This document shows positions 1-23,436 of a DNA stretch of 32,000 nucleotides, piece after piece. The notes under the pieces are model-generated. The model was not told the origin of the DNA. It saw only the letters and a list, made by a program, of their open reading frames with translations, and did no database searches. Made by a program: the position numbers and the translations under genes. Source of the stretch: an archaeon (lineage in GTDB: Archaea > Asgardarchaeota > Thorarchaeia > Thorarchaeales > Thorarchaeaceae); contig JAJRZD010000112.1 in assembly GCA_024275415.1 (NCBI GenBank), positions 7,014-39,013 of the forward strand, in the 5' to 3' direction. Numbering within the stretch: the stretch's first letter is position 1; each line of letters begins with the position of its first letter.

Positions 1-1743
1 CAGATATGCTTCTACCATTGCCATGATCTGCTCATTCGTTGAATGCAACATGATTATCGCGTTGCTTGGGCATGCCGCTGCACAGGTACCGCATCCATGG
101 CATTTGGCCTCGGTCACGTACGCAATATGGGGGTCTCGTGACATGTCCCAGCTTATCGCTCCGTAAGGACATGCTGTGATACAGGTGGCACAGGATGAGC
201 ACAGGTCTGGGATGACACGCGACACTGTTGATTCAATCTCGACTGCACCTTTTGCCATCAGTCCCACTGCTTTGGCTGCAGCCCCGCTCGCATCGATAAC
301 TGATTCCGAAGCGTTCTTGGCAGCCTGTGCAGCACCCGCAATCATGATTCCCGCGGTGTGCGTTGTGACAGGGTTCAGCTTCACATGTTCGGGATTGAAG
401 AAGCCATCCGAGCTTCTCGTGAGGCTAAAGGTATGGCTCACTTCCTCTATCCCTTCTGGAGGCACCATTGCCGTGGCAAGAACGATGATGTCTGGGTTGA
501 ATTCCATATCTGTGTCTGCGAGGACATCTTTCCAACGCATGGTGATCTTACCATCATTCACCTCTACTTCAGGTTTGGCGTCCGGAGGATACTTTGTGTA
601 GATGACATGCTTCTGCCGAGCAACTCTCTGAAAGTCCTCGTGCTCCTTGCCGTAGGTCCGGATGTCCTGATAGAGAATGACTACCTCATCAAGTCGATCC
701 GCCATGATGCCCGCTGTCTTTGCCAGTGCTGAACAGCAATACCGCGAGCAATGCTCGTGTCCTTTCCAGCCCGGCTCGCGAGAGCCGACGCATCCGATAA
801 AGGCGACCTTCCTGACTGGCTTCCCGTCACTCGGTCTGATGAACTGCTGCTCATCAGGTCTTCCTTGCAGGTCTCCCAGAGTCATGATATCTAATGATTT
901 GTCATAATTATAGAGACCCACTGGGACGTATGGTTGGAATCCTGTAGCCACTATCACGGCTCCGACCTCATACTTCTTGTGTTTCTTCAAGCCTTCTACT
1001 GAAACCTCCACCTCGAAATTGCCTATGTACCCTTCGAAGTTCACAATGACTGCGCCGGTTCGAATCTCTATGTTCTTGTGCTTTCGAACACGATGAATCA
1101 TGGGTTCCAATACCTCATGACCTGGCTTGTCACCAGGAAACATATGGGCCCACTTCCGGACATTGCCGCCAAGCTCCCTTTCTCGCTCGATGAGCACTAC
1201 CTCAAACCCTCTGTCTGCGATATCAAGGGCCGCCCTGAGCCCTGCAATCCCTCCACCCACGACAAGTGTGCGAGGAGTGATCTCAACCTTTTTGATTGGC
1301 AATGGCTCAAGATTTGCAGCCCGTGCCACCGCCATCCGAACTAGGTCATTGGCTTTGGCTGTAGCAGCTTCAGGTTCTCTCATATGACACCAAGAAACGT
1401 GCTCGCGTAGATTCACCTGCTCGAATAGATAACGGTTTAATCCGGCTTCTTCAACCACTCTCCGGAATGTAGGTTCGTGCATCCGCGGTGAGCAGCTGGC
1501 TACGATAACTCTGTTGAGGTTATGTTCATGTATCATGGTTCTGATGGTTTCCTGACCTGCATCACTACAGGTGAACATCTCATGAGTTGTAAATACAACA
1601 TTTGGTAGAGTGGCTGCTGTTTTTGCCACATCCTCGACATCCACAACTCCTGCAATGTTATGGCCACAATGGCACACGAACACACCAATCCGTAGCTCTT
1701 CCTTTGATTCCATGGCGTTCATTCCTACACTGTCTTCTGTCAT
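1..1743 (-). CDS. hdrA: Heterodisulfide reductase subunit A-like flavoprotein, short type (3' end runs off the window; at least 581 aa)
   Basis: Translated by hand: open frame from ATG at 1743 (ATGA overlap with the hdrB stop) to position 1 with no stop. Reads MTEDSVG...RIGVFVCHCGHNIAG, FTCS, ASCSPRMHE, VVGGGIAGLRAA (FAD), GCVGSRE...HCSRYCC, C-terminal CSSCATCITACP and CHGCGTCAAACP, ending QIMAMVEAYL. Alternative start at ATG 1713. Confidence 0.95.
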   Translation of the reverse strand, partial: MTEDSVGMNAMESKEELRIGVFVCHCGHNIAGVVDVEDVAKTAATLPNVVFTTHEMFTCSDAGQETIRTMIHEHNLNRVIVASCSPRMHEPTFRRVVEEAGLNRYLFEQVNLREHVSWCHMREPEAATAKANDLVRMAVARAANLEPLPIKKVEITPRTLVVGGGIAGLRAALDIADRGFEVVLIERERELGGNVRKWAHMFPGDKPGHEVLEPMIHRVRKHKNIEIRTGAVIVNFEGYIGNFEVEVSVEGLKKHKKYEVGAVIVATGFQPYVPVGLYNYDKSLDIMTLGDLQGRPDEQQFIRPSDGKPVRKVAFIGCVGSREPGWKGHEHCSRYCCSALAKTAGIMADRLDEVVILYQDIRTYGKEHEDFQRVARQKHVIYTKYPPDAKPEVEVNDGKITMRWKDVLADTDMEFNPDIIVLATAMVPPEGIEEVSHTFSLTRSSDGFFNPEHVKLNPVTTHTAGIMIAGAAQAAKNASESVIDASGAAAKAVGLMAKGAVEIESTVSRVIPDLCSSCATCITACPYGAISWDMSRDPHIAYVTEAKCHGCGTCAAACPSNAIIMLHSTNEQIMAMVEAYL

Positions 1744-2615
1744 TGGCTCACCCCACAACAGTCAATTACCGAATGAGGGTCAATCTTGTTCAGCTCGACA
1801 CCCAACATGTCCTCGTCCAAGCCCAATGCTGGCCCTAGAAACTGGGTGATGGGTAGCACTGGTATCTTCTGTCGATCACTGGTTCCCCCTCCGAACTGTA
1901 CCTGGGTCAGCTGGATATCACAGAACACACAAGCTGTCACAATCCCGTCTGCTCCAGCTTTGGTAACGTTATCGATCTTGTCCAGTCCAATGGTCGTAGC
2001 GACATCCTCATCCATTGCGAGCATCGGACCCCCACAGCAACGTGTCTTTCCAGGATAGTCCACTGCTTGTCCGCCCACAGCTTCAACCAGTCTATCCAGG
2101 ATAGTGGGGTTCTCGGGGTCGTCAACATGGACTATCTCGTAGGGACGTGTCACATGGCATCCATAGTGCGCCGCCATTTTGATGCCATTATAGGGCTTGA
2201 CAACAGCCCGTTCTATCTTGTCGAATCCAATATCCTCTGCCAAGACCTGTAAGAGGTGACGCACACGGACTTTACCACTGTACTTCAAACCCTCTTCTGC
2301 AAGTAAGGAATTCACCTCATCTCTAGCACGGATATCATGGTCAAGAAAGTGCTTGTTCGTCTTGAGAGACCCTGAACATGCACCACAAATTGCAAGGATG
2401 TCCTTTTCCTCGCGCTCAGCCAGTGCCAGTATTCTTCCACTCATAGACGCAAAAGCCATCCTGTCCATGGATTCGACGTATTGAGCGCCACAACAATTTG
2501 TATCTTTCAGCTCGATGACATTTACTCCGAGCTTCTCAAGGACCGCGATAGTGGCAGCCTCGTATGCTGGAAGTCTGACTGGGGTGGTACAGCCTCTATA
2601 GAGCAGCATATCCAT
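1740..2615 (-). CDS. hdrB: Heterodisulfide reductase subunit B (two CCG domains)
   Basis: Two complete CCG motifs: YRGC...NCCG...ICGAC and HYGCH...RCCGG...ACVFC. 291 aa, abutting hdrC and overlapping the short hdrA. Confidence 0.95.
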   Translation of the reverse strand: MDMLLYRGCTTPVRLPAYEAATIAVLEKLGVNVIELKDTNCCGAQYVESMDRMAFASMSGRILALAEREEKDILAICGACSGSLKTNKHFLDHDIRARDEVNSLLAEEGLKYSGKVRVRHLLQVLAEDIGFDKIERAVVKPYNGIKMAAHYGCHVTRPYEIVHVDDPENPTILDRLVEAVGGQAVDYPGKTRCCGGPMLAMDEDVATTIGLDKIDNVTKAGADGIVTACVFCDIQLTQVQFGGGTSDRQKIPVLPITQFLGPALGLDEDMLGVELNKIDPHSVIDCCGVSQ

Positions 2616-3166
2616 TAGCTCCCACTCTCCTCAGCAGCTTTCTTTCGTTCGAAATACCTTTTTCTCAACTTTCCAACGAACTCGTTGTTCATGTGTAGCT
2701 CAGGGTTCAGTCCAAGGTCCTCGCGTTCGTCCTCTTGAAAATCAGTGTATGCATCTTTCAGCATCCAACCATCCTCCAACACAGTCTTCACAGCCTCTTT
2801 GAAGACCCGCGGGACATGTCCTTCTCGTGCTGCAATCGTTCGAACAGCAAGGAATATCTCGGCAGGCGACACTCCCTCTTGGCAGCGTTCCTCACACATC
2901 CTGCAATTAAGACAGAGCCACGATTGGTCGCTCGAAAGAACTTCCTCTCGAAGTCCAAGGATGATTTTTTGGATCATTCGTCTTGGCCTGTATAGATCGG
3001 TCGCATTGGCCACAACACAGCTAGCAGTACATATGCCACATTGGATACACTTGTTGATGGCTTCACCGCCTTCTACCTTCTCAACCTCTTTGGCAAAAGC
3101 TGAGGTTGGAACATGAATAGATTTCTCTTGACCTTTTGTTGTACAAGTATGCATTATATTCGTCAC
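2615..3166 (-). CDS. hdrC: Heterodisulfide reductase subunit C (2x[4Fe-4S])
   Basis: CIQCGICTASC and WLCLNCRMCEERC; RRMIQKIILGLREEVL is typical of HdrC. GTG start overlaps the upstream TGA stop. Confidence 0.92.
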   Translation of the reverse strand: MTNIMHTCTTKGQEKSIHVPTSAFAKEVEKVEGGEAINKCIQCGICTASCVVANATDLYRPRRMIQKIILGLREEVLSSDQSWLCLNCRMCEERCQEGVSPAEIFLAVRTIAAREGHVPRVFKEAVKTVLEDGWMLKDAYTDFQEDEREDLGLNPELHMNNEFVGKLRKRYFERKKAAEESGS

Positions 3167-5973
3167 CTCGATTTGGTTGTTTCAAGCTCAGCCTCTGGAG
3201 CCAGACTTTCTATAGTATGTTCGGAATCCTGGCCTGCAATCATTCCCCCCAGTACAATTGATGCTCTCATGGCGGCCGCACTTCCCGCAGTCACTGAATC
3301 GGGTATGTCCTTCGGCCCATCAGCACAACCACAGACGAAGATACCCATCTTGCTGGTATCGACAGGAGAAGTGAGCTCGTTCCGTACATCGATGTAGCCT
3401 TCATCTGAGAGGGCGATTCCAAGCTCCTCTGCTAGTATATTGACATCATCTGCAGGAAGCAGACCTGGGCTTATCACCAAAAGGTCATGCTCAACCTTCT
3501 CAACGGAGCCAGTTTCTGTGTTCTCTACTTGGATCATGAGGTTGTCATTCTCAGGGTTCTCGTCTACTTCACCAACACGCCCTCGGACAAAGTTGACGCC
3601 AAATCGGGTCTTTGACATCTCGAAGAACTCCTCGAACCCTTTGCCAAACGCTCGAATATCCGCATAGTATATAGAAACCTTCGCCTCTGGGTCATGTTCT
3701 CTAGCCATCACAGCATTCTTGATGCCATACATACAACAGACCCTGCTACAATGGGGAACATTCTTCTGAGTATCTCGCGCTCCGACGCATTGCACGAACC
3801 CGATGTTCTTCGGCATTTTTCCGTCGCTCAGGCGTATCAGATGACCTTGAGTAGGACCCGCTGCATTGATGAGTCGCTCGAATTCCATGGCTGTTATGAC
3901 ATTCTTGAACTTACCATATCCAAGCCGTTTGTATTTGCTGACCTCAAAGAGCTTGTATCCAGTGGCAACTACAATGGCTCCCACGTTCAGGCTCAACCGT
4001 TCCTCCTTCATCGAGTGATCGATGGCATCTCTATCACATGCTTCCACACAGTTCATGCACTCACAACATATCGTGCAGTTCAGACAGCGCCCTGATTCAT
4101 CGAGGGCAGTATCTTCATCAAATCCAAGCTCGACCTCTGAGAAATCGCCTTTACGACTTGCGATGCTCTGATGGGGCATCTCAGCTCTGGCTTGTGGTAT
4201 GAATGTCGATTGGTCTATCTTTGGTCTTGCAATCCTGTAGACCTCAGGGTCTCGCCCTGCTCGAATATCCAGTCCGTTAAGGTATCTATCGATAGATATT
4301 GCAGCCTCCTCACCCTGCCCAACAGCCTGCACTACTGTGGCTGGGCCAAGAACACAGTCACCACCAGCGAAGACTCCCTCATTACTCGTTTGCAATGTGA
4401 CTTGATCTGTGATAATGGTACCCCACTCGGTAGTATCCAAATCGTTGTGGAGTGGAATTGGTTCTACAGACTGACCAACTGCGATAATCATAGTGTCTGC
4501 AACGACAGTGAACTCCGAATCAGGTATTGGGATAGGTCTCCTTCGCCCTGAGTGGTCAGGTTCACCCAGACGCATTCGGATGCACTTGACACCTTGCACA
4601 GTACCTTTCTGGGTCAGAACCTCTACTGGATTCGTGAGGAACATGAAGCGGATCCCCTCCTGACGGGCCATCTCTACCTCTGATGGGATGGCTGGGAGTT
4701 CGACCTGTGAGCGCCGGTATATCATTGTGACTTCGGACGCACCCAGACGAAGAGCTGTCCTACACGAATCCACGGCTGCATCGCCACCCCCGATGACCAC
4801 TACGCGTTCACCTAATTCTACAGGCTTGTGAGACGCGACTCTATCGAGAAAATCAATTGCATGGTATACACCTTTCGAGTCTTCACCTGCAATCATCAGT
4901 TTGTTACTGTGACTGGCGCCTGTAGCTATGAAGACTGCCTTGAATCCTTCATCTTTGAGCTCATCGATTGATTGTATCTCTCTGTCACAGACGAACTCGA
5001 CGCCGTGCTTTGCGACCCATTGGATCTCTTCCTGAAGGATGTCCCTTGGCAGTCGGTATTCAGGTATCGCATATTTCAGCAGTCCTCCCTCTTCTGATCT
5101 CTTCTCAAAAACAGTCACAGGATACCCTTTACGGGCAAGATGATATGCACATGAGATTCCTGCTGGTCCGGCACCCACAACGGCAACCCGTTCACTCCTC
5201 TTGATTTGAGGTTCCACCGTGACCTGTGTGTTGTGTTCTCTCTCGTAGTCTGAGAGGAAACGGTGGAGATTCCTGATGCTAACGCTCTCGTCATACTCTC
5301 CTCGTTGACACTGCCCTTCACACCAGCTTACACAGACCCTTCCGAGAGTGCCCGGGAATGGTATTGCATCCCGCACAATTCTGATGGCTTCTGCATATTT
5401 CTTTTGATTCATCAAAGTGACGAATGCCTGAGCATTCACGCCTGCTGGACAATTAATCCTGCAGGCTGGGTGGTCTCGTTTATCAATCGTGTACACATTA
5501 GGTGTAGCCTGTGGGAACGGTAAATAGGTCGCTTTCCTGAAGCCCAATCCCTCATCAAATTCATTTGCAACCTCGATAGGGCAGACCTCAGAGCAGTCGC
5601 CACATCCCGAGCATTTGTCTTCCAGAATGTATCGAGGTTTCCTGATGACTTCCACATGAAAATTGCCAGCTTTGCCAGTCACTCGCTTGACTTCAGAATA
5701 CGTCAGAAGCTCGATATTTGGATGTCGTGCAACCTCACTCAATCGTGGCGTCAGTATGCATGCTGAACAATCAAGGGTAGGGAAGGTCTTGTCTATTGCT
5801 GCCATATGTCCGCCAATGCTAGGCGTCTTCTCGACAAGATGGACTTTGAAACCTTGGTTTGCGATGTCCAATGCGGCTTGCATTCCAGCAACACCACCAC
5901 CTATCACGAGTGCACTGGGTTCCTGGGTGTCCTTATTTGCAGGATTTGTTTGCGTAGGATGATCAACAGTCAT
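3163..5973 (-). CDS. hdrA: HdrA core with an inserted GltD/NfnB-like NAD(P)H:flavin Fe-S module (HdrL-like), 936 aa
   Basis: HdrA motifs: GGGVAG, DKTFPTLDCSACIL, CSGCGDCSEVCP, ITAMEFERL, QCVGARD...CSRVCC, GCADGPKDIP. Insert motifs: CRINCP...GRVCVSWCEGQC, GAGPAG, GGGDAAVD, YRRS, FAGGD, RCLNC. SD-like AAGGAG at 5982-5987. Confidence 0.93.
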   Translation of the reverse strand: MTVDHPTQTNPANKDTQEPSALVIGGGVAGMQAALDIANQGFKVHLVEKTPSIGGHMAAIDKTFPTLDCSACILTPRLSEVARHPNIELLTYSEVKRVTGKAGNFHVEVIRKPRYILEDKCSGCGDCSEVCPIEVANEFDEGLGFRKATYLPFPQATPNVYTIDKRDHPACRINCPAGVNAQAFVTLMNQKKYAEAIRIVRDAIPFPGTLGRVCVSWCEGQCQRGEYDESVSIRNLHRFLSDYEREHNTQVTVEPQIKRSERVAVVGAGPAGISCAYHLARKGYPVTVFEKRSEEGGLLKYAIPEYRLPRDILQEEIQWVAKHGVEFVCDREIQSIDELKDEGFKAVFIATGASHSNKLMIAGEDSKGVYHAIDFLDRVASHKPVELGERVVVIGGGDAAVDSCRTALRLGASEVTMIYRRSQVELPAIPSEVEMARQEGIRFMFLTNPVEVLTQKGTVQGVKCIRMRLGEPDHSGRRRPIPIPDSEFTVVADTMIIAVGQSVEPIPLHNDLDTTEWGTIITDQVTLQTSNEGVFAGGDCVLGPATVVQAVGQGEEAAISIDRYLNGLDIRAGRDPEVYRIARPKIDQSTFIPQARAEMPHQSIASRKGDFSEVELGFDEDTALDESGRCLNCTICCECMNCVEACDRDAIDHSMKEERLSLNVGAIVVATGYKLFEVSKYKRLGYGKFKNVITAMEFERLINAAGPTQGHLIRLSDGKMPKNIGFVQCVGARDTQKNVPHCSRVCCMYGIKNAVMAREHDPEAKVSIYYADIRAFGKGFEEFFEMSKTRFGVNFVRGRVGEVDENPENDNLMIQVENTETGSVEKVEHDLLVISPGLLPADDVNILAEELGIALSDEGYIDVRNELTSPVDTSKMGIFVCGCADGPKDIPDSVTAGSAAAMRASIVLGGMIAGQDSEHTIESLAPEAELETTKSR

Positions 5974-6537: not shown

Positions 6538-8412
6538 TCATGCCAACACAGAAGGAACAATGCAATCACCAAGTCGATGCTTGATGGCTTCCAGTTTTGC
6601 TCGTTGTTCAGATAGAATCCTGTAGAGCAATTCAGGGGCATCTGGCACCGTTTCACGGTATACTTTCTCGATCCTCTCAATCTTGGCGAGGTGGTCTGGC
6701 ACCCTGAGCTTGAACTGCTCCTCATATTCGGCTTCCGAATATTCCTTGTCCAGATGCTTCTCAAACAATGATTTGAGGTCTTCGTAATGGGGGATATGTC
6801 CTGTTGGTGTTGCGATTGCATCGACCTCGTCATGCACCCTTAGTTCCATCCATTTCAACCAGACACGCTTGTCTGACTTATCAGTTATGAAATTACCTTC
6901 CTTATCTCTCAGGAAATAGTTCACAGCAAAGATGAGAGGGGGTGAGTCGATATCCACAACGAAATCTAGGTGGTTCTGGATATACCTGCCCAGTGGGATT
7001 GAGATGAAATCTAGATTTGAGAAAGGCTGAAACTTTCTCACACCACTTGGTCCCAATGTTGCTGCGGTGGTTTCTGACTCAAGGCTTGCACCCATTGTGA
7101 TGACGCCATGTTCCCAGTTCAATGACTGCTGAACAGGCACCCAGGTATCGCGGTCTCTTCCACCATAAATGATGCCTCCTACCTCCACACCGCGGGGGTC
7201 ATCTAGAGCATCGTCCAAGTTCGAGAGACCGTCCAGACCAATGGTGTATCTTGCGTTTTTGTGAGCATACGGGATGACCTCACCGTTTCGATCAACCTTT
7301 CCTTCAAACCATTCGCCCGAGAAATTGATTCCAGCCTTTGGAGGCGGGAGTCCGTCATCCAACCAGCGAGGCTCAGCATCCTCCGTCACAAGTACATTTG
7401 AAAAGATAGCGGGCTGTTTTGAATGGAGGACATCCCAGATTATTGGGTCATCCTTTTCAGTCACAGAACGGATGATTCCGAAGATACCTCGTTCGACATT
7501 CACAGCCCTGACCTTTCCATCTATCTTTCTGAGATATGCAAGATCATCTCCCACGATGGAATTGCCGCGGGTCATTGATGTGCTCGTCTTTCCACATCCG
7601 GATGGGAATGCCCCTGTGAAGTATGTTTTCCGTCCGGTGGGTCCATGTACGGCCATAAGGAACATATGTTCGGCAAGCCACCCCTCTTTGTCAGCTTTCC
7701 GAATCGCAAGGCGAAGTGCAAGCTTCTTCAGTCCGATAGTGTTCCCCGCATATTGAGTGTTCATACTGTAGACGGTATTTGTCTTGTAGTCAATCATGAC
7801 ACCTCGTTTCTTCCAGTCCGTGCTCACTGAATGGATGAGCTTGCCAGAAGAATGCAGCATCCAGAAGATCTCGTGATCCTCCGGCATCCTTCTGAAGTAA
7901 TCATACCCGCGTCGATAGAGTAGATCCTCACTGTGTGCCACATAGAACGAGTCAGTTATCTGTACGGCGGGAATGGAGAACGGCGAGTCCAGAGGACCGA
8001 GAACGAAGAAGCGAACGACCATCTTCTTATTTTCCATGGTTCCAGACAGTCGATCCCGGGCCAATTGCAGACCGTAGTCGCGGTCTATCTGAGATAGATG
8101 CTCACCTAAAACTTCACCTTTTGGTACTAAATAGACCGTACGTTCTTTATCTCGTGCCTGATCAAAATAACCATCGAAATGGACTGTGTGGTATGGGTTG
8201 GCAAGTGGTGCTTCCTCTCCCCGTGCTATCGCTGTGCGTCGGATGTACTCGGTGTCCTCTCTCGAATCATTGCATACGAACACCTTCATCGGCTTGCAGA
8301 GCCTTATTGCATCTGCTACGAACTTATGCACTCGCCTGTTAGGAATCGCAAGCAGTTTCCTAAAATTAGCATCAGTCAATGACTGTTCGAGAACCGACAT
8401 TATCTCGTTCAA
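6538..8412 (-). CDS. pckG: Phosphoenolpyruvate carboxykinase (GTP-dependent)
   Basis: YAGNTIGLKK, WLAEHM, GAFPSGCGKTS (P-loop with Cys), VGDDLA, ERGIFG, HKNARYT, IIYGGRD, VNYFLRD. 624 aa; TTG start with GGGGA 8 nt upstream (alternative ATG at 8400). Confidence 0.95.
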   Translation of the reverse strand: MNEIMSVLEQSLTDANFRKLLAIPNRRVHKFVADAIRLCKPMKVFVCNDSREDTEYIRRTAIARGEEAPLANPYHTVHFDGYFDQARDKERTVYLVPKGEVLGEHLSQIDRDYGLQLARDRLSGTMENKKMVVRFFVLGPLDSPFSIPAVQITDSFYVAHSEDLLYRRGYDYFRRMPEDHEIFWMLHSSGKLIHSVSTDWKKRGVMIDYKTNTVYSMNTQYAGNTIGLKKLALRLAIRKADKEGWLAEHMFLMAVHGPTGRKTYFTGAFPSGCGKTSTSMTRGNSIVGDDLAYLRKIDGKVRAVNVERGIFGIIRSVTEKDDPIIWDVLHSKQPAIFSNVLVTEDAEPRWLDDGLPPPKAGINFSGEWFEGKVDRNGEVIPYAHKNARYTIGLDGLSNLDDALDDPRGVEVGGIIYGGRDRDTWVPVQQSLNWEHGVITMGASLESETTAATLGPSGVRKFQPFSNLDFISIPLGRYIQNHLDFVVDIDSPPLIFAVNYFLRDKEGNFITDKSDKRVWLKWMELRVHDEVDAIATPTGHIPHYEDLKSLFEKHLDKEYSEAEYEEQFKLRVPDHLAKIERIEKVYRETVPDAPELLYRILSEQRAKLEAIKHRLGDCIVPSVLA

Positions 8413-8666
8413 TGTTCTATTCCCCTGATTTCACGGAGCACACATGTCCGGTTGATTCATCTCCAACATGACACACACGCCTGCTGCAACCTGACCCTTA
8501 AAACAGTTTTTCCATGAAACACGCAGTTGTTCAATCCCAAAAATAGATTGTCCAATAGGAACACATGTTCATGTCGTCTATGACAACACTCAAATGTTGA
8601 GGGCAGCCGATAACGGCTCATGCCTTGAAGGAGAGCAAGGTAGAAGAATGGATGATGGTGAGTCTG

Positions 8667-10847
8667 ATGCTGAAGGAGTTCACCTATGACGTACCAAAGA
8701 TAGAGCGCGGCTATGCCAATCAGACGCTCTACGTGAATTTGAGCACCAACGAGATCAAGGTCAAGCCTGTTGATGAGAAGATGAAAGAAACCTTCACTGG
8801 AGGAAAAGGCTTCGACCTGTGGCTTATGTGGAACGGGCTACCTAAAGACAAGGTTGTCAAATGGGATGATCCCGAGAATGAGATCTGTATCGCCTCAGGA
8901 CCATTGGGAGGCGTGACCCAGTACCCGGGAGCTGGAAAATCAATCGTGACGACAATCTCGCCTATGACTGGTATCCCGATTGACTCTAATGTGGGAGGGT
9001 ATTTTGGGCCCCACCTGAAGTTCAGTGGATTTGATGCCATGGAAATCCAGGGAAAGGCAAATTCTGATATCTATATCTTCATTGATGGAGATCACGGCAA
9101 GGTTCAGATATATGATGCCTCTGACCTTCCTGACACGGCCTACGAGATCACGCGGGTTCTTAGCGAAAGGCATACTGAAAAGGACGGTAAGGATCTGTCG
9201 GTGGTGTCAGCGGGACCTGGTGCTGAACATGCATGGATGGGGTGCCTGAACTTTAGCTGGTGGGATATGAGACGGAATATGCCTAGATACAAGCAAGCAG
9301 GCCGTGGAGGAGTTGGTACTGTATTCCGTAACAAAAGAATCAAGGCTTTAGTCTGCAAGATTCAGAAAATCACACTAGATATGAACAATCCTGCGGATCC
9401 GGATGGAGTAAAGAAGGTCGGTCGTGAGCATTCCAGCGAGATCCTCGAACTCGATTCAAAGCAGAACAGGATGCGTGTTGTTGGAACTGGACACCTGCCC
9501 AGCATCATGGACGAGTTCGACCTACTGCCAACACGCAACTTTAGGACTGGAAGTGATCCTGAAGCGAAGAACCTGTTTGGCGATGTCTGGGAAAAGATAT
9601 TCACGAATCCCGGAAAGGGCTGGGATGGATGTTGGAGACCCTGTGCCATCAATTGTTCACACTGCATTGAGGGCTTTGTCCCTAAAACAGGGCCATTCAA
9701 AGGCAAGACTGTTCTGGTCGATGGGCCCGAGTACGAAACCATCGCTGGGTGTGGTTCTAATATTGGTGTGTTCGACCCTCACTATGTTGCAGAGATGAAC
9801 TTTTACTGTGACGCCTATGGGATCGACACGATATCTTTTGGCACAACAATGGCATTCGTGATGGAACTCTTTGAAGAGGGATATATCGACGAGAAGGCTA
9901 CTGGGGGACACAAGCTCACATGGGGCGCAGGAGAAGAGGCGTTAGCTGTCCTTCACGAGATTGCTGAGGGTAAGGGCTTTGGCGGTGAGCACTTTGGCAA
10001 GGGGACGCACTATCTCAAAGGCTACTTCAGAAAATTCGGTGTCGATGAACAGATCATGCAGGACATAGGGATGGAACATAAGGGTCTTGAATACTCCGAA
10101 TACATGACCAAGGAAAGCCTTGCTCAACAGGGGGGTTACGGACTCGCCTTAAAAGGTCCACAGCATGATGAGGCATGGTTGATATTCCTTGACATGGTTC
10201 ACAACTATATGCCAACTTTTGACCAGAAAGCAGAGGCACTTCACTGGTTCCCAATGTGGCGAACATGGTTCGGGTTGAACGGACTGTGTAAGCTACCGTG
10301 GAATGATGTCGTTCCTGCTGACAATGCTCAGACTGATGAGCCTGCAAAGGTTCCCAAGCATATTGAGTTCTATGCACGGTTCTTCGAAGCGATGACAGGA
10401 CGTCCAACTAAGGGTGATGACCTCGTAGGCATGTCTGAGAAAGTCTACAACTTCCAGAGGATATTCAACATTCGCCAAGGCAAAGGGCTGCGAATAAATG
10501 ACTCTTTCATCCCATACAGGAGCGCTGGACCTGTCACTGATTGGGAATATAAGTCACGACAGGAACGTTATGATACCCAACTCAAGGAGTCAGGAATCGA
10601 TATTGATGGTATGACAACCACTGAGAAGAAAGACAAGCTACGAGAAATCCGGGAGGAACGTTACAGGCTCCTTACTGATGCGGCATACAAACGGCGAGGC
10701 TGGACACGGAATGGCGTGCCCACATTGGACAAGGTAAAGGCACTTGGACTTGACTGGATCCCCGGACTTGTTGATATCGTGAAGAAGCATACAGAGTCAC
10801 AGCCACCCAATGAAACACTTCCTGCTAGTGATGAGGCTTGGATGTGA
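8667..10847 (+). CDS. aor: Aldehyde:ferredoxin oxidoreductase family tungsto/molybdo-enzyme
   Basis: TFTGGKG, DSNVGG, LKFSGFDA, SAGPG, AGRGG, DGPEYET, CDAYGIDTIS, GLCKLPW, RGW. ATG 8667 was chosen because GGTGAG lies just upstream (the track starts at 8625). The substrate subfamily cannot be assigned. Confidence 0.9.
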   Translation: MLKEFTYDVPKIERGYANQTLYVNLSTNEIKVKPVDEKMKETFTGGKGFDLWLMWNGLPKDKVVKWDDPENEICIASGPLGGVTQYPGAGKSIVTTISPMTGIPIDSNVGGYFGPHLKFSGFDAMEIQGKANSDIYIFIDGDHGKVQIYDASDLPDTAYEITRVLSERHTEKDGKDLSVVSAGPGAEHAWMGCLNFSWWDMRRNMPRYKQAGRGGVGTVFRNKRIKALVCKIQKITLDMNNPADPDGVKKVGREHSSEILELDSKQNRMRVVGTGHLPSIMDEFDLLPTRNFRTGSDPEAKNLFGDVWEKIFTNPGKGWDGCWRPCAINCSHCIEGFVPKTGPFKGKTVLVDGPEYETIAGCGSNIGVFDPHYVAEMNFYCDAYGIDTISFGTTMAFVMELFEEGYIDEKATGGHKLTWGAGEEALAVLHEIAEGKGFGGEHFGKGTHYLKGYFRKFGVDEQIMQDIGMEHKGLEYSEYMTKESLAQQGGYGLALKGPQHDEAWLIFLDMVHNYMPTFDQKAEALHWFPMWRTWFGLNGLCKLPWNDVVPADNAQTDEPAKVPKHIEFYARFFEAMTGRPTKGDDLVGMSEKVYNFQRIFNIRQGKGLRINDSFIPYRSAGPVTDWEYKSRQERYDTQLKESGIDIDGMTTTEKKDKLREIREERYRLLTDAAYKRRGWTRNGVPTLDKVKALGLDWIPGLVDIVKKHTESQPPNETLPASDEAWM

Positions 10848-11023: not shown

Positions 11024-11386
11024 TCAATCTTCAACATACTTGTTTATGATGCTAATGAATTCGTCATAGCTGAATGGTTTCAAGAGAAAGTGCACTGAGC
11101 CTGCTTGTAGCGCTTCCTCTTGGACGGTTTCGTCCGCGCTGATGAAGAGCACTTTTGTGTCGTGCTTTATCTCAAGAATCTTCTTGGTAGCATTTACACC
11201 ATCAATGACTGTCATCCTGTGATCCATGATGACCAAGTCAATCTCGTCCAAATGCTTCAAAAATAGCTCAACCGCTTCTAGTCCATTTATCGCCTGCGCG
11301 ATTACCTTATGGTCTGTCATCTCCACGACATATTTCAGAAGGTTGTTCAGGTCTTTGTCATCATCAACAAGCAGGATCCGTGCCAT
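11024..11386 (-). CDS. Stand-alone CheY-like response regulator
   Basis: ILLVDDD, LVIMDHRM (phospho-Asp), FISA, FLLKP. 120 aa, no output domain. Confidence 0.92.
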   Translation of the reverse strand: MARILLVDDDKDLNNLLKYVVEMTDHKVIAQAINGLEAVELFLKHLDEIDLVIMDHRMTVIDGVNATKKILEIKHDTKVLFISADETVQEEALQAGSVHFLLKPFSYDEFISIINKYVED

Positions 11387-11405
11387 TCTCTATAAACCTA
11401 AGCCA

Positions 11406-11418
11406 TTCATTTAATGAA
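11406..11418. promoter_or_regulatory. Short palindrome TTCATT-T-AATGAA upstream of the receiver gene
   Basis: 6-bp arms with a 1-nt spacer, about 20-32 nt upstream of the 11386 start. The arms match the core of the 24213-24232 palindrome. Short enough to be chance. Confidence 0.25.
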
Positions 11419-11586
11419 CATTGTGGTTGTTACAGAGTTGGAAGGAGTCCAATCAGATGTCATACGACTGATAGTGTTAGAGATTCAGGTGTTAAAATTT
11501 CAGGCACATATCTATTTTTGTTTGTTTCAAACGGGAACTTCCTGCTGATTTTTCGCAGAGTCAGTTATTGTCTAAAACTCCAAGAG

Positions 11587-12057
11587 TCACAGAGTCAATC
11601 GCGCATGGCTATCTTGAGCGCTTTTCTTTAGCTCCTTTAACATCTTTACAATAAAAGGTGCGTCATCGCTATACAACTCAATAAGGGAGTCTATGTTAAC
11701 CACGATTTCTTTCAGCTGATCCACCATCTTCTTGACCCCTATGGAGATGAGCGAGCTGGCTTCTTCATCAATTGAATATAGAATCCTTCTTCTGCCTCGA
11801 CCAGTCTGTTTGTAATCCGCAGCACCATAGACTAGTCCTAGAGCCTCAAGCTGCGAAATGATGAGTCCTACATTACTTCGGGAGTAGTTTGTAAATTCGC
11901 AGATGTCGTCCACACTTAATCGTTCATTGGATTCATACTTGGCCACATAAAGGGAGGCAAGTACAGGTCCTGTATTCCTCGGCAGTCCCAACCAGTCTGA
12001 TTGCTTTTCAAAGAACCTGACTAAGTCAGGATAATCATCTGTTGTTGATTGTTTCAT
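11587..12057 (-). CDS. GbsR/MarR-family winged-helix transcriptional regulator
   Basis: GLPRNTGPVLASLY...LSVDDICEFTNYSRSNVGLIISQLEALGLV...GRRRILY. AGAGGA SD upstream. Confidence 0.8.
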   Translation of the reverse strand: MKQSTTDDYPDLVRFFEKQSDWLGLPRNTGPVLASLYVAKYESNERLSVDDICEFTNYSRSNVGLIISQLEALGLVYGAADYKQTGRGRRRILYSIDEEASSLISIGVKKMVDQLKEIVVNIDSLIELYSDDAPFIVKMLKELKKSAQDSHARLTL

Positions 12058-12127
12058 AAGAGAGTCCTCTCAATTTCCTTTTTTGATTATTATCATATAA
12101 AACTGTCGTATTTGTGTTATTTATAAT

Positions 12128-15100
12128 CTAATTGGCAAGCACATCCTCATCTGGAATTATAATCTCGAACGTGGTTTGCTTGTCTTTGCCAAGTTGGATG
12201 GACCAGCCGTGAGATTCGATGATTTTTCGGACAATTTGTAATCCGAATCCCCGACGTGGATCTATTGTTGATATTCTTCTTGTGAATATATCATCACGGA
12301 TATCATCAGGTATCTCTCGTCCATCATTGGCTATTGACAATATATACGAGGAGTCCTGCTTTTCACATCGGAAAAATATCTTCTGCGGTTTGCCATGCTG
12401 GAGTGCATTCTCCACAATATTTGTCAATGCTTGGGAAAGTTTACTTCTATCGCCAGTGATACGCAACTTGCAAGTGTTCTCAAAAGAAGTGCCTTCCGGG
12501 ATTAGTGTTGATGCCATATTGTCTATCAGCAAATGCAAATCAATGTCTTGTTGCTTATCAACAGTAAGACCCGCGTCAGCTAGCATAACAGAATGCTTGA
12601 CCATCTCACTCATTTCGACAAGAATATTGTTCATCTTGTCGATTTGCTCTTTATTCTCAGATGATTCAATGAGTTTGGTCATCATCCTCAATTTCAGAAC
12701 GAAGTTATTGATATCATGACCCATTGTATGAGCGAACTGACTCAGTTCTTCTCGTTGGTGCATCAACTCTCTTGTTGCCATAACCTGCTCAGTGATATCT
12801 CGCGAAACAGATACGAAGCCCTTGCCGTTCTCATGCAAAGATATCTTTGATGAAAACCAATGTTCACGACCTCGGATAACTACCGAATACTCGACAAATT
12901 GGGGTTTCCCAGTCACTCTAACTCTCTCGAACGCCACATTGAATCTCTTCCCAACTTCCGGCCCTAGCACATCTGAAGGAGTTTTTCCTATGAATTCATC
13001 AGGAAACCTTGGTAAATCTACCTTGTCTGCATTGATAAGTTCGACATATCGATTGTTTTCATCAAATACGAATACGAGATCCGACATTGAGTTCAGTATC
13101 ATTTTATAACGCTCTTTTGATTCCTGTAATTTCCTCAATACCTCTTTCCTTTCAGTGATGTCAACAACACTAGCATTGATATGTTTCTGTCCTTCATATT
13201 CTAACAATGTTGTCGTAATCTCAACGTCAATGATACTACCATCATGTTTTTTCAATCTCGATTCGAATGTTAATGACTTCGCATTGTCGAGCTCCTTCTT
13301 TAACTTGGCCCATCGCTTATGATCGTATAAGATATCAATATCGTGGACGGTCATCTTCATTAGGTCATCTATCGAATATCCCAGCATATCCGCTGCGGCT
13401 TTGTTCACATACATGAAGCTAGCATTTGGACGCACCCAGTAAATAGGGATAGGCGATGTGTCCACGCTAAACTGTGTTAGCCTTAGCCTGTGTTCATGCC
13501 TCTTGATGTCAGACATGTCCTTGTTTACAATGACATATCCTATTGGCTTGCCATTATCATCCTTTATTTGGGATACAGAACCGGCAATGTGTATCGTCCG
13601 TCCATCCTTTGTCTTCTGGATAGCCTCTCCCCGCCAGCCACCATTTTTCTTAATCTCTGACTTGACATCACTATCGGTCGTACCAGTTGGATATCGTAAT
13701 GGACGAAGAACATCACCGGCAACTTTCCCAATGACCTCTTTAGATTTCCAGCCATACATGTTTTCAGCTGCTCTGTTCCATGTTTTGATTATGAAATTCT
13801 CATCAGTAGAGATGACCGCGTCGCTTGCATTCTCCAGTAATGCTGCCTGCTCAAGGAGTTTCTGCTCTTGTTGCTTTTCAAACGTGATATCTTGTAGATG
13901 GATTAGATTGCCAAAAGTGAGTCCTGTTGTAGGGTCTTTTAGCGGTGTGACTCTTGCATCCACAAACATCTTTCCGGTTTTTGAGGTCTGATATAATCCC
14001 TCTTTGTGAATGATGTCAAAATCAAAGATGTTGGTGAATCTTGATGGCTTCCCCTCTGTCAATGCTTCTTTTACATTGTCAGGCGTATTTGGGTCTTTAT
14101 GTAGATCGAACCCTATAAGTTCCTCTTTCTGACTAACCCCAAACATTTTCAGACCAGCAGGATTGATGTCAATGATTTTTCCCTTCTCGTCAACCAGTTC
14201 TATAGCGATAGGAGACTCCATGAACATCCTTGCGAATTTCTCCTTGGACTCGTGGAGATCCATCTCATACTTCTTCCTCTCAGTCGTATTAATGAGGATG
14301 ACCTGATATAGCGTGGAGCCGCCAATCTGAATTCGGGATATGGTGCATTGAACCCAAAGTTCTCTTTGCTTAGGATCAATAATCACGAACTCTATATTCG
14401 ATTCCGCATCAGACCCCGTCAAGAACCGGTCTAGAAACGCTCTGACACGTTTTGAGTCCTTTGGATGGATATAATCCAGAAGCTGACGGGTTGCGAGCTT
14501 GGTGCATTCCTCCAGGGGTTTCTCAAGAACTCTGCACACAAGAGGGTTCGCGTATGATATCCTGAGAGGGTTGCCTTCCAGCAGGATGATTCCCATTGAT
14601 GCCTGATCCACTAACGCCCGATACTTTTCTTCACTCTTGCTCAATTCTTCTTGAACTTGCCGTTGCTCACTTATGTCCTGTATCATTCCATATAGAATCT
14701 CAGGATCACCATCCGGAGAATATTGGATTGATATGTTCACATTTGTCCATATGATCTCGCCATTTTTCGAAAAAAACCTGTGTGGGGCATTAAAGACAGA
14801 GCCACCTGCGGCGATTACACTCATATATTTTTCATAGCTTGCTTTGAAATCTTCGCGATGGACAAGATCCTTCGGCATCATGGCCAGTATCTCTGTCCGT
14901 GAATAGCCCAGCATTGAGCAAAGAGCAGGGTTGGCATCTAGTATCAAACCATCGGGGCGATAGACCAAGATCCCTAAACCACTGTTCTCGAAAATCGTTC
15001 TGAATCGTTCCTCACTTTCCATGAGTGCATATCGATCTCGCTTCGATTCTGTGATATCCTCGACCATGTAAATGGTGAAGACAGGCTCTCCTTTTGAGTT

Positions 15101-15811
15101 CAGGACGGCCGATACACTGACTCGTCCCCAGATACGTTCATTATCCTTTTTCATAAGCTGCTTTTCCAGCTGGTAACTATCTCTTATCCCCTGAACCATC
15201 TCTCTTGTTAACCTGCTCTCAAGTTCCTTCTCATCCCCTGTTGAGAACTCCAATATGTTCATGCCAGAGAGCTCTTCAAGCTCGAAACCAAGCATTTGCG
15301 CTAATGCAAAGTTTGCCTCAAGGATATAGCCATCAATTGTCACTCGGGCAATCCCAACTGATGCCCACTCAAAGATTGCTCTGAAACGAGATTCGCTTTC
15401 TTGTAACGCCTCCTCAATCTCCTTTTTTTCTACGGCATTCTTGATGTGATGGGCTAGCTCTTCGAATAGGTTCTCAAAATCCTCTACATCCTTCTTCAAG
15501 TAGAAGCTTGCTCCAAGATTCAAAGCACGAATTGCCACTTCCTCACGACTGCGTCCAGTAAACATTATGAATGGGATATCGCTGCCTGCACCGCGCAACC
15601 ATTCCAAGAGCTCAAGGCCGTTCATTTCCCCTTCTCCTAAATGAAAGTCACAGACAATGGCATCAAAGCCTTCTGACTCGATCCGTCTAAGAGCGTCCTG
15701 TGCAGACACGGATAAGAAGGTCTTGAACTCCGGATGCTCCCGTGTCAAGAACCTCTCAATCAGTACGAGAAGATCCCTGTCGTCATCGACTATGAGTATC
15801 TGTATTGTCAT
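12128..15811 (-). CDS. Soluble hybrid sensor kinase: REC + 7 PAS + HisKA + HATPase
   Basis: N-terminal ILIVDDD / IVCDF / FTG / YLKK. Seven PAS units ending in DITE-like motifs. H-box MGHDINN, N-box NIVENALQHG, NDG, GFGLQIV. No hydrophobic TM stretch seen. Confidence 0.93.
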   Translation of the reverse strand: MTIQILIVDDDRDLLVLIERFLTREHPEFKTFLSVSAQDALRRIESEGFDAIVCDFHLGEGEMNGLELLEWLRGAGSDIPFIMFTGRSREEVAIRALNLGASFYLKKDVEDFENLFEELAHHIKNAVEKKEIEEALQESESRFRAIFEWASVGIARVTIDGYILEANFALAQMLGFELEELSGMNILEFSTGDEKELESRLTREMVQGIRDSYQLEKQLMKKDNERIWGRVSVSAVLNSKGEPVFTIYMVEDITESKRDRYALMESEERFRTIFENSGLGILVYRPDGLILDANPALCSMLGYSRTEILAMMPKDLVHREDFKASYEKYMSVIAAGGSVFNAPHRFFSKNGEIIWTNVNISIQYSPDGDPEILYGMIQDISEQRQVQEELSKSEEKYRALVDQASMGIILLEGNPLRISYANPLVCRVLEKPLEECTKLATRQLLDYIHPKDSKRVRAFLDRFLTGSDAESNIEFVIIDPKQRELWVQCTISRIQIGGSTLYQVILINTTERKKYEMDLHESKEKFARMFMESPIAIELVDEKGKIIDINPAGLKMFGVSQKEELIGFDLHKDPNTPDNVKEALTEGKPSRFTNIFDFDIIHKEGLYQTSKTGKMFVDARVTPLKDPTTGLTFGNLIHLQDITFEKQQEQKLLEQAALLENASDAVISTDENFIIKTWNRAAENMYGWKSKEVIGKVAGDVLRPLRYPTGTTDSDVKSEIKKNGGWRGEAIQKTKDGRTIHIAGSVSQIKDDNGKPIGYVIVNKDMSDIKRHEHRLRLTQFSVDTSPIPIYWVRPNASFMYVNKAAADMLGYSIDDLMKMTVHDIDILYDHKRWAKLKKELDNAKSLTFESRLKKHDGSIIDVEITTTLLEYEGQKHINASVVDITERKEVLRKLQESKERYKMILNSMSDLVFVFDENNRYVELINADKVDLPRFPDEFIGKTPSDVLGPEVGKRFNVAFERVRVTGKPQFVEYSVVIRGREHWFSSKISLHENGKGFVSVSRDITEQVMATRELMHQREELSQFAHTMGHDINNFVLKLRMMTKLIESSENKEQIDKMNNILVEMSEMVKHSVMLADAGLTVDKQQDIDLHLLIDNMASTLIPEGTSFENTCKLRITGDRSKLSQALTNIVENALQHGKPQKIFFRCEKQDSSYILSIANDGREIPDDIRDDIFTRRISTIDPRRGFGLQIVRKIIESHGWSIQLGKDKQTTFEIIIPDEDVLAN

Positions 15812-16030
15812 GCAACCACCTCTTACCGGAAGTTGAATCAGCTGAGGTTGAGGAAACGTATCAAGTACTGCTGATGGCGTAGTACCCTAATCTCACTTTC
15901 ACATCGCCCTCCCTTTAATAAAATAATTCCGTCTAGGATATTTGAGAAAATATTATACCGGAAATTAGGAACCGTTTTCGCTTAATATGAACAAAAAACA
16001 AGTCCATCAACAAAGGTTTTTTATTTTCTT

Positions 16031-16051
16031 TATGTAATGATTTATTACATA
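16031..16051. promoter_or_regulatory. Imperfect palindrome in the AT-rich region between two divergent kinase genes
   Basis: TATGTAATGA-T-TTATTACATA, 9/10 arm match. Confidence 0.4.
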
Positions 16052-16143
16052 TAATATTGTAAAAAATGGTGATAATAAGACTTGTAATGAGGCTTACTTG
16101 TGCATCGCAATGACATTATGAACAATGATCAGCCATCGCGAGT

Positions 16144-19119: not shown

Positions 19120-19203
19120 GTCTCCACCAAAAAACGTCTCTCCGTTAAGGGGAAAATTCATACTTGTTGCTGAATCGTCAAGAAGAAATCATGTTCAAGA
19201 AGT

Positions 19204-19281
19204 GAGGAGGATACACAGAGTTCGGATCGCGGAAGGGAGATGAGAAAAGGGATTGTTTATCAGGTATCTGGTATCCTCCTC
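19204..19281. repeat. Inverted repeat / possible structured RNA
   Basis: GAGGAGGATAC (19204-19214) pairs with GTATCCTCCTC (19271-19281), extendable by CAGA/TCTG with one bulge. Confidence 0.45.
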
Positions 19282-19289
19282 TGCCCGTT

Positions 19290-19469
19290 TCAGTCTTGTT
19301 TGGTCTTCATGGTCCCCATTGGTTCTATGCATTTTTCGCAAACGATGAACAAACCATCTCGGCATCGATTGAGAAACCGGAGATAGTATTTCAGAGAATC
19401 ATCGTCTGCCTCAAGCTCTACAAGAGGAATATTCTGCATATTGTTGGTCCCACGAATTGTTATTGCCAC
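19290..19469 (-). CDS. Hypothetical 59-aa protein with a CxxC motif
   Basis: GTG start preceded by GAGAGGA. MAITIRGTNNMQNIPLVELEADDDSLKYYLRFLNRCRDGLFIVCEKCIEPMGTMKTKQD. Below the ORF-track cutoff; no family recognised. Confidence 0.35.
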   Translation of the reverse strand: MAITIRGTNNMQNIPLVELEADDDSLKYYLRFLNRCRDGLFIVCEKCIEPMGTMKTKQD

Positions 19470-19727
19470 AACAGGTTCCTCTCTTTCTTTATTATTTTTT
19501 ATAGTGTAATAATTATTTTATATATGTTTTTTGTATTAATTTTTATTTTAGCCTAGGTATTAATCTGACGAAGTCACGATAAGTCATATCCCCACAAGGC
19601 GATTGAAAAGAAAAATATTGTATTTATTACAGATAAAATTATTACAAGAACACAGATATACTCGCATGCTAAGGAAGTTGTATCCTCAGCTTATTCCCTA
19701 ATCGACCTTCCTCAATGGTGTTCTATA

Positions 19728-21616: not shown

Positions 21617-21619
21617 ATC

Positions 21620-22003
21620 TCATTCCAACTCATCAATGAGTTTCTGAATGGAAGCACGGAGTCGGTCGGATGAGAGAGCACCCTTAATCATATAATCCTT
21701 GATTCCCATATCGAAACACTTGCTAAGGGTTTCTTCCTCATCAATGGCTGTTAGTGCCACTACGACAATATCGGGAAATTTCTCCCGTACTTGTTTGATG
21801 ACCTCCAAGCCACTCATTTTTGGCATGACAAGATCTACGATGAGGATATCGGGAGGTGATGTTTCGATCTTCTCAAGAGCCTCAAGTCCATTCATCGCAA
21901 AATCTATGTTGAACCCTCTAAGCAGAACTCTAGCGGCCCGTATGAAATCTTCTGAGTCATCGACCAGTAAAATTGTCCCTCTAGTTGATTTCTTGGAATT
22001 CAA
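21620..22003 (-). CDS. Stand-alone CheY-like response regulator
   Basis: ILLVDDS, ILIVDLVMP, ALTA, YMIKG. TTG start with GGAGG upstream; overlaps the upstream ATPase gene by 23 nt. Confidence 0.92.
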   Translation of the reverse strand: MNSKKSTRGTILLVDDSEDFIRAARVLLRGFNIDFAMNGLEALEKIETSPPDILIVDLVMPKMSGLEVIKQVREKFPDIVVVALTAIDEEETLSKCFDMGIKDYMIKGALSSDRLRASIQKLIDELE

Positions 22004-23414: not shown

Positions 23415-23436
23415 TTAGATACCAAACTCCCGTCTA

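Follow-up and report, generated by a model that had tools for sequence, protein, structure and literature searches.

Organization of the hdr-mvh operon

The window analyzed here is a 32,000-nucleotide stretch of a Thorarchaeota contig (assembly GCA_024275415.1, contig JAJRZD010000112.1; G000:C97:7014-39013 in our numbering, where C97 is the contig label), and its start is occupied, on the minus strand, by four tightly packed genes encoding a long HdrA protein, HdrC, HdrB, and a short HdrA protein. The genes mvhD, mvhG, and mvhA are located just outside the window, directly downstream of the short hdrA gene, producing the gene order long hdrA - hdrC - hdrB - short hdrA - mvhD - mvhG - mvhA. The two HdrA proteins are the subject of this analysis: their domain contents are complementary, and we propose, with an estimated probability of approximately 80%, that together they represent a split HdrL-type, pseudo-symmetric HdrA which functions as an obligate heterodimer within one operon-encoded complex.

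The stop codon of the long hdrA gene (3163..5973) overlaps the start of hdrC (2615..3166), whose 183-amino-acid (aa) product carries two [4Fe-4S] cluster motifs, while hdrB (1740..2615; 291 aa, two CCG domains) shares 1 nt with hdrC and overlaps the start of the short hdrA gene (1..1758), all four genes being encoded on the minus strand. The end of the latter is in turn overlapped by mvhD, the product of which matches the Pfam family FlpD (7e-51), and the products of mvhG and mvhA match Oxidored_q6 and NiFeSe_Hases, respectively. The Mvh-Hdr gene set, comprising hdrB with its CCG domains, hdrC, mvhD, mvhG, and mvhA, is thus complete in a single operon.

Two HdrA proteins with complementary domain content

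The long HdrA (P0001; 936 aa) represents the Cys197-type half of the pair and carries an NfnB/GltD-like module. Alignment to the solved HdrA chain 8rvu_a places its residues 12-165 on chain residues 145-298 and its residues 635-908 on chain residues 300-572, and the same alignment reveals neither an N-terminal domain nor a C-terminal 2x[4Fe-4S] ferredoxin domain in this protein. The motif DKTFPTLDC69SAC72 is retained, with Cys69 (codon at 5767..5769, minus strand) representing the equivalent of Cys197, or selenocysteine (Sec) 197, of solved HdrA, as judged from alignment with 8rvu_a and 8rvv_A. Among 15 orthologues of 59-83% identity, C69, C72, E699, and K752 are invariant, and the closest public matches to the whole protein are from Candidatus Thorarchaeota (83% and 79% identity).

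The long protein still reaches 936 aa in spite of two missing domains because of an insertion of 460 aa (residues 166-625; 4099..5478, minus strand), which is similar to NfnB and GltD. This module harbors the Pfam domains Fer4_20 and Pyr_redox_2, matches the solved NfnA, NfnL, DPD, and GltD chains at 1e-113 to 1e-60, and contains motifs for two [4Fe-4S] clusters, a flavin adenine dinucleotide (FAD)-binding Rossmann fold (GAGPAG), and a Rossmann fold of the type that binds nicotinamide adenine dinucleotide phosphate, NADP(H) (GGGDAA...YRRS). Its Cys and Gly columns, together with GGGDAA...YRRS, are invariant in the orthologues, and it is on account of the latter motif that we infer a preference of the module for NADP(H) over NAD(H), the nonphosphorylated nucleotide. 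The module splits the inserted ferredoxin of HdrA exactly between its two cluster motifs, at 8rvu_a residues 298/300. The first ferredoxin half (5479..5637, minus strand; residues 113-165, CSGCGDCSEVCP) precedes the module, and the second half, which is followed by the C-terminal part of the thioredoxin reductase (TrxR)-like FAD domain (3238..4098, minus strand), carries C636/C639/C642/C646 as well as the HA4 cluster motif, C729...C742, C746, C747. Two extra cysteines, C630 and C633 (CLNCTICCEC; window positions 4075-4086), are located just before the second ferredoxin motif, at the junction with the NfnB-like module, and are likewise invariant in the 15 long orthologues; these may represent ligands of an additional or remodeled cluster which joins the two modules.

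The short HdrA (P0002) has a full length of 597 aa in the contig, of which the final 11 residues, along with the stop codon, fall beyond the window start. It represents the N-terminal-domain-type half of the pair, consisting of an N-terminal Cys domain, an FAD domain, and a C-terminal 2x[4Fe-4S] ferredoxin. In alignments with 8rvu_a, 8rvv_A, and 5odc_A, its residues 16-253 and 262-585 correspond to 8rvu_a residues 6-243 and 326-652, and the inserted ferredoxin (chain residues 244-325) is absent, as is the Cys197 equivalent: the protein reads HMFPGDKPGHEV where the solved chain reads KTFPTLDCSMCI, and the Cys197 position is occupied by Pro212 within FPGDKPG (codon at 1123..1125, minus strand). 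The N-terminal domain (residues 20-150; 1309..1701, minus strand) carries C29, C31, C64, and C89, all of which are invariant among 14 orthologues. Both C-terminal CxxCxxCxxxCP motifs are present in the ferredoxin domain that begins at residue 506 (1..243, minus strand), a domain which, in solved complexes, constitutes the docking place of MvhD and the hydrogenase arm (PMC12350162).

The GxGxxG motif and the CxGxR...CSxxCC motif of the HA4 [4Fe-4S] cluster are present in both proteins, each of which thereby possesses the TrxR-like FAD domain that is the hallmark of structure-defined HdrA (5ODC/8RVU). The remaining parts of that definition, namely, the N-terminal domain with Cys197 and both ferredoxins in one polypeptide, are found in neither protein singly, and it is the pair that jointly provides the N-terminal domain and Cys197. 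A preliminary description of this DNA had already viewed the two proteins as mirror images, assigning DKTFPTLDC and a ferredoxin to a long protein devoid of N- and C-terminal domains, and the N-terminal Cys domain and C-terminal ferredoxin to a short protein devoid of the inserted ferredoxin and the PTLDC cysteine. Alignment to the solved chains agrees with both halves of this view, the Cys codon at 5767-5769 was confirmed, and the motif assignments bear out the FAD site and CxGxR...CSxxCC of both proteins. Two details required revision: the short gene had been given as 1-1743, and its identity stands while its extent does not, as the gene leaves the window; and the inserted ferredoxin of the long protein is indeed present, yet its interruption by the 460-aa NfnB/GltD-like module had been omitted from that finding. 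The mvhD, mvhG, and mvhA genes, located beyond the window, had not been noticed in that description either.

Complementarity and co-occurrence across genomes

Thirteen HdrA units were mapped in the host genome (G000). All five units that lack the N-terminal domain keep the Cys197 equivalent (hereafter Cys-type units), and these are represented by the long protein, a shorter HdrA (HdrA') on contig C21, the first halves of two fusions on C73, and a 417-aa protein on C47. Conversely, all five units which possess the N-terminal domain but not the inserted ferredoxin lack the cysteine (arm-type units), and each of these is either encoded by the next hdrA gene, adjacent or following hdrC-hdrB, or forms the second half of the same polypeptide. 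The three complete HdrAs (two on C34 and one on C112) harbor the N-terminal domain as well as the cysteine. Besides the long/short pair, the genome thus holds two fused and two further tandem complementary pairs. The fused double HdrAs are located on L013 (G000:C73:44000-63999) at 6934-10335 (plus strand) and 12346-15387 (minus strand), with open frames of 1173 and 1041 aa; in both, the Cys-type unit precedes the arm-type unit, and one of the two carries a fused MvhD at its end. A TGA flag in the match of the C21 HdrA' had raised the possibility of a Sec at position 197, which was rejected, as the frame reads Cys (PTLDCSAC) and the TGA corresponds to the junction of two genes in different frames.

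The long orthologue retains DKTFPTLDCSAC in all 14 Thorarchaeota relatives of the family, and in each locus whose contig is long enough, a Cys-less N-terminal-type HdrA is encoded downstream in the operon, ahead of mvhD and mvhGA; two of these loci are cut by contig ends, G021 within hdrB and G018 within the short gene.

A wider collection of 172 HdrA units was drawn from approximately 85 loci, i.e., 79 loci of many phyla together with those of the window genome itself. As these units and loci are related to one another and the long protein served as the bait in finding them, all counts are descriptive rather than statistical or independent. The collection comprises 78 units with Cys197 and no N-terminal domain, 65 with the N-terminal domain and no Cys197, 27 with both, and 2 with neither. 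Where sufficient context was available, 48 of 50 N-terminal-less, NfnB-bearing units have an arm-type partner encoded no more than 4.5 kb downstream, with these 50 loci covering Chloroflexota, Planctomycetota, Zixibacteria, Myxococcota, Actinomycetota, Thermoplasmatota, and others. Cys197 is absent from every one of the 48 partners, and the inserted ferredoxin from 43 of them. The two unit types are encoded by one open reading frame (ORF) in 20 loci, in tandem in 8, with hdrCB between them in 15, and with a further HdrA' between them in 5; in the 20 fusions, the units follow the same order as the window genes, with the Cys-type unit first. Judged from these sequences, the complementarity is not a product of chance.

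In a tree of the FAD-domain cores, the arm-type partners form one old cross-phylum clade (support 98/99), while a complementary pair from Chloroflexota is nested among the complete HdrAs. The Cys-type NfnB unit and the arm-type partner of these Chloroflexota loci (L059 and L064) are sister lineages there, with support of 100/95. Because this separate pair is placed inside the complete-HdrA clade, the tree points to complementary loss having arisen more than once, with an independent and more recent origin in Chloroflexota. Some Thorarchaeota also encode a "complete" NfnB-inserted HdrA of approximately 1120 aa (L036 3316-6687, L037 482-3844, and L043 5623-8988), which holds the N-terminal domain, the cysteine (DKVFPQNDCAIC), and the C-terminal ferredoxin, with an MvhD-like stretch close behind, and which, by analogy, could homodimerize.

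Bifurcation residues and modeled interface

Residues E356 and K409 are taken as hallmarks of bifurcating HdrA flavins (PMC12054007). The long protein retains both, as the invariant E699 and K752, whereas the short protein has a Gln at the E356 position, beside a 5-residue deletion, and a Lys at that of K409. The same asymmetry is apparent in the wider collection, where 97 of 106 Cys-bearing units, counting the complete HdrAs, retain both residues, compared to 29 of 65 Cys-less N-terminal-type units. As only the long protein of the pair keeps the Glu356/Lys409 pair, the long, Cys-type subunit probably holds the single bifurcating FAD.

The pairing was also modeled using long residues 12-167 and 622-915, from which the NfnB-like module had been removed (alignment A1), and short residues 14-512, from which the C-terminal ferredoxin had been removed (alignment A2). 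The interaction prediction score from aligned errors (ipSAE) was 0.92 in all three runs, compared to 0.57 for the best control, and passes a mark attained by 58 of 80 solved complexes and by 2 of 110 mismatched pairs. Agreement between the runs extends to at least 94% of contacts, and the predicted local distance difference test (pLDDT) value of the partner is at least 88. The confident interface involves long residues 63, 65-66, 68-69, and 72-79, that is, the PTLDC loop 63-79, and short residues 31-34, 37, 61-62, 64-67, 69-70, 89, and 93-97, and the model places Cys69 against C31, C64, and C89 of the short N-terminal domain.

These results bear on the central suggestion of the preliminary description, namely, that the two genes encode a heterodimer with two nonequivalent FADs. 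The heterodimer is supported by the 48 of 50 loci with both unit types, by the 20 fusions, by the Cys-less nature of the partners, and by the complex model; the nonequivalence of the FADs is supported by the retention of E699/K752 in the long protein and the Gln at the Glu position of the short one. The frequent occurrence of only one of the two genes in homologous operons had been named as a finding that would speak against the heterodimer, and the survey instead found both types nearly always present. The proposed proximity of the PTLDC cysteine to the N-terminal Cys region of the short subunit is seen in the model (0.92 versus 0.57), which may, however, echo the solved HdrA homodimers.

Proposed mechanism of the heterodimer

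In the solved HdrA dimer, Cys197 of one subunit completes the N-terminal cluster of its partner (PMC9012536), and a mobile arm, composed of MvhD, the electron-input enzyme, and the N- and C-terminal domains of one HdrA, feeds the FAD' of the partner (PMC12350162). The low-potential path leads from the FAD via the N-terminal cluster to the inserted ferredoxin, with the Cys/Sec197 pair as a possible relay (PMC13518236). Transferred to the present locus, the short subunit would represent the mobile arm, contributing the N-terminal domain, three ligands of one [4Fe-4S] cluster, and the C-terminal ferredoxin, the last of which is predicted to dock MvhD and an [NiFeSe] hydrogenase. Cys69 of the long subunit would provide the fourth ligand of the N-terminal cluster of the short subunit, and the long subunit would also bring the one FAD at which the Glu/Lys bifurcation pair is complete, as well as the HA4 cluster toward HdrCB.

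The only low-potential exit would then be the inserted ferredoxin of the long subunit, presumed to be hard-wired to the NfnB-like FAD/NADP(H) module rather than open to free ferredoxin. Such an NfnB/GltD-type exit to a nucleotide instead of ferredoxin has been argued from models for type III HdrA (PMC12054007). Because everything required of the arm is located on the short subunit and everything required for catalysis on the long one, the heterodimer would rebuild one complete bifurcation site, centered on the FAD of the long subunit, while the FAD of the short subunit is believed to be nonbifurcating and probably structural, as in BamE (see below). A second bifurcation at the FAD of the NfnB-like module was discarded as the default view, given that no NfnS/NfnA-like high-potential partner was present among the scanned near-operon ORFs, and is retained here as a possibility.

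Regarding the net chemistry, it is tentatively suggested that bifurcation or confurcation couples H2, NADP(H), and a disulfide. One option would be the reduction of NADP+ by H2 at low H2 pressure, pulled by disulfide reduction, and the reverse would be equally possible. The disulfide is unlikely to be CoM-S-S-CoB, the heterodisulfide of coenzymes M and B, because methanogenesis genes are absent, no McrA having been found in the host genome (93% complete). An anaerobic methanotroph of the ANME-1 group was considered as the host and rejected for lack of McrA, with the 16S fragment being archaeal and the long protein matching Thorarchaeota most closely; the host is an Asgard archaeon and neither a methanogen nor a methanotroph of the ANME type.

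Alternative pairings and functions

The alternative that survives best, although we consider it rather unlikely, is promiscuous pairing, whereby the short subunit dimerizes with either the NfnB-bearing long protein or an HdrA' without the module, for example the C21 paralogue, giving rise to two complexes, one NADP(H) linked and one ferredoxin linked, which share HdrBC and the hydrogenase. An argument in its favor, and against exclusive pairing of the long and short proteins, is provided by six relatives (G010, G012, G015, G017, G019, and G024; loci L033, L039, L041, L040, L035, and L042, respectively) whose operons read long - hdrC - hdrB - HdrA' - short - mvhDGA. The product of this third gene is a Cys-bearing HdrA' of approximately 440 aa with neither the N-terminal domain nor the NfnB module, its gene overlaps that of the short protein, and it may be the partner which the short subunit prefers in these six relatives. 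Within the host itself, contig C21 carries hdrC - hdrB - HdrA' - short2 - mvhD. Identities amount to 68% between short2 and the short protein and to 70-84% between this HdrA' and the HdrA parts of the long protein, and cross-pairing between the two loci is conceivable; furthermore, in the tree, the long protein is placed within the HdrA' clade of Thorarchaeota (support 100/100). On the other hand, the long protein is the only Cys-type HdrA of the operon in the window and in the loci of seven relatives, Cys-type and arm-type units are balanced in the host genome at five each, and the fusions fix NfnB-bearing and arm-type units in a 1:1 pairing.

A separate function for the two proteins appears very unlikely. 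Under this scenario, the long protein and HdrBC would constitute a stand-alone NADPH:disulfide oxidoreductase resembling HdrA2B2C2 of Methanosarcina, and the short protein would belong, with MvhDGA, to a distinct hydrogenase-linked module or form a homodimer. It would agree with the retention of FAD and HA4 motifs in both proteins, with the existence of heterotrimeric type Ia HdrABC (HdrA2B2C2) in which a partner HdrA is lacking (PMC12054007), and with the suggestion that the Cys197/Cys200 pair may be a redox-active disulfide, apart from its role as a ligand (PMC13518236). However, a short homodimer would lack one ligand for its N-terminal cluster as well as any low-potential exit, while a long homodimer would possess no electron-receiving arm and no relay cluster between the FAD and the inserted ferredoxin, i.e., across a gap of approximately 33 Å (PMC13518236). 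Separate function is further opposed by the 20 single-frame fusions and the 48 of 50 loci with both types, as well as by the overlapping or abutting of the four genes. Finally, it is extremely improbable that one gene is a decaying duplicate whose complementarity is an accident of degeneration, since, despite the loss of Glu356, Cys197, and one whole domain from the short protein, both genes are intact, 14-15 orthologues of 59-83% identity retain every cluster Cys residue, and the arm-type lineage is an old cross-phylum clade.

Several further observations weigh against the heterodimer with a single bifurcation site as proposed here. Besides Lys409, the short protein retains the motifs for the FAD and the HA4 cluster, and its FAD may still be redox active; moreover, the E356 call in divergent partners depends on local tblastn alignments beside the 5-residue deletion. 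The success of the complex model may be an echo of the solved HdrA homodimers, and would then indicate likeness rather than binding. In addition, both the direction of the NADP(H) branch and its partners are putative.

Relation to characterized HdrA systems

Close counterparts of the long/short pair are found in anaerobic methanotrophic archaea (ANME). For tandem or fused ANME HdrAs (HdrA5/6, 12/13, 3, and 4), Chadwick et al. (2022, PLoS Biol, PMC9012536) put forward a heterodimeric assembly, describing complementarity between the N-terminal domain and Cys197 in ANME HdrAs and in a Moorella HdrA, as well as an NfnB insertion in HdrA9-11 of ANME-1. The pattern by which such pairs were recognized, i.e., an N-terminal domain and a Cys197 which complement one another in two units of one cluster, is apparent at the present locus, and the logic is identical in that the two-fold symmetry of the solved (HdrABC-MvhAGD)2 is broken. 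The locus differs from the ANME pairs in its host, a Thorarchaeota genome without McrA, in the NfnB module of the Cys-type partner, in the location of hdrC-hdrB between the two genes, and in the presence of an [NiFeSe] Mvh hydrogenase in the operon. The surveyed fusions begin with the Cys-type unit, whereas the order reported for HdrA3/4 is the opposite (PMC9012536). The heterodimeric HdrA design has, therefore, already been published, and the locus is a new example rather than a new principle.

HdrL, a fused NAD(P)H-bearing protein, was named in 2009 from Desulfobacterium autotrophicum (Strittmatter 2009, PMC2702500). The modules of the present pair, namely, an HdrA core with GltD/NfnB, a complementary HdrA unit, and mvhD downstream, recur in HdrL and in the large HdrA from the MetFV-HdrABC-MvhD complex of Moorella, and the 20 fused loci share the HdrL build in the order of the window genes. 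The GltD/NfnB insertion and the directly downstream mvhD of HdrL are both found here, while the second HdrA unit resides in a separate polypeptide, the two genes being split by hdrCB and coupled to mvhGA; this likeness refers to module build and not to direct alignment.

Type III HdrA (GltD inserted; A9 and A10) has been reported for ANME-1 and Bathyarchaeota (Microbiol Spectr 2025, PMC12054007). The GltD/NfnB module is likewise placed inside the inserted ferredoxin, and E356/K409 are kept. According to the same study, the A9 class is derived from the N-terminal-less A6 class, and a Bathyarchaeota cluster also carries mvhADG (PMC12054007). NADH was argued for type III from a GXGXXG motif, whereas GGGDAA...YRRS suggests NADPH in the present case, and pairing with an arm-type partner is not stated in that work (PMC12054007).

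An experimental precedent for the asymmetry proposed here is offered by BamE of class II benzoyl-CoA reductase. This protein is a fused HdrA dimer whose two FADs differ, one being bifurcating and the other nonbifurcating, and the conserved Lys is found at the single bifurcating TrxR-like domain (cryo-electron microscopy preprint, bioRxiv 10.64898/2026.04.10.717634). Unlike the long/short pair, BamE is a single polypeptide in which the domains are permuted and the NfnB insertion is missing; it is fed by a HydABC-like module and has a tungsten enzyme as its output. The canonical methanogen complex (MvhAGD-HdrABC)2 (PDB 5ODC and 8RVU) has the same subunit set, its HdrA matches the HdrA parts of the pair at approximately 1e-145 to 1e-131, and all of its cluster motifs can be mapped onto the pair; it is, however, a symmetric homodimer with two complete bifurcation sites, a ferredoxin or polyferredoxin exit, and CoM-S-S-CoB as its substrate. 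Duplicated and fused HdrAs of Thorarchaeota and Lokiarchaeota have also been catalogued (PMC11237513).

Neighboring genes

Within L011:3427-5366 (contig C97, approximately 1.6-3.6 kb before the window start), the mvhA gene reaches a TAA stop after 438 aa, and the [NiFe] hydrogenase large subunit that it encodes is without the C-terminal metal-binding motif. The small ORF next to it starts MTEEIPEGVLNLLEMVVRCYDC-U-LSC, with an in-frame TGA, and the two together constitute a split VhuA/VhuU-like [NiFeSe] large subunit. A further small ORF is located between mvhD and mvhG (L011:6305-6751, contig C97); it was called at 148 aa and is probably shorter, owing to its overlap with mvhD, and no Pfam match was found for it. 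Canonical mvhDGA operons are not known to carry a gene between mvhD and mvhG. Elsewhere in the window, large ORFs of 1227, 991, and 549 aa are situated within positions 11024-26914, and an Rfam search of the window returned no RNA families.

Significance of the split pair

Flavin-based electron bifurcation of the HdrA type is central to anaerobic energy conservation, and to our knowledge the diversity of HdrA outside the methanogens is mostly uncharacterized. The present locus contributes an Asgard archaeal pair of the HdrL type that is split and hydrogenase linked, a tally, across phyla, of how often exactly this pair co-occurs or is fused, and the asymmetric conservation of Glu and Lys, by which the Cys-type subunit is indicated as the only bifurcating site. 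The split locus allows a division of labor to be read from sequence, with the short protein as the arm and the long protein as the catalytic core, and two separately expressible subunits are easier targets for mutagenesis and co-expression than a fusion of 1,400-1,500 aa.

It is tentatively envisaged that the Thorarchaeota pair forms a single-site complex with an NADP(H)-wired low-potential branch and an [NiFeSe] hydrogenase arm, coupling H2, NADPH, and a nonmethanogenic disulfide, and that the arm could switch partners where a third HdrA' exists. If so, the organism could, for instance, gain NADPH from H2 at trace levels, with disulfide reduction as the pull, or could release excess NADPH as H2, and an arm subunit with access to a third HdrA' could select either NADP(H) or ferredoxin as the exit. 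Such a complex would bear on hydrogen and syntrophy models of Asgard metabolism and, the host being an Asgard archaeon, its handling of hydrogen and NADPH bears on models of eukaryote origin.

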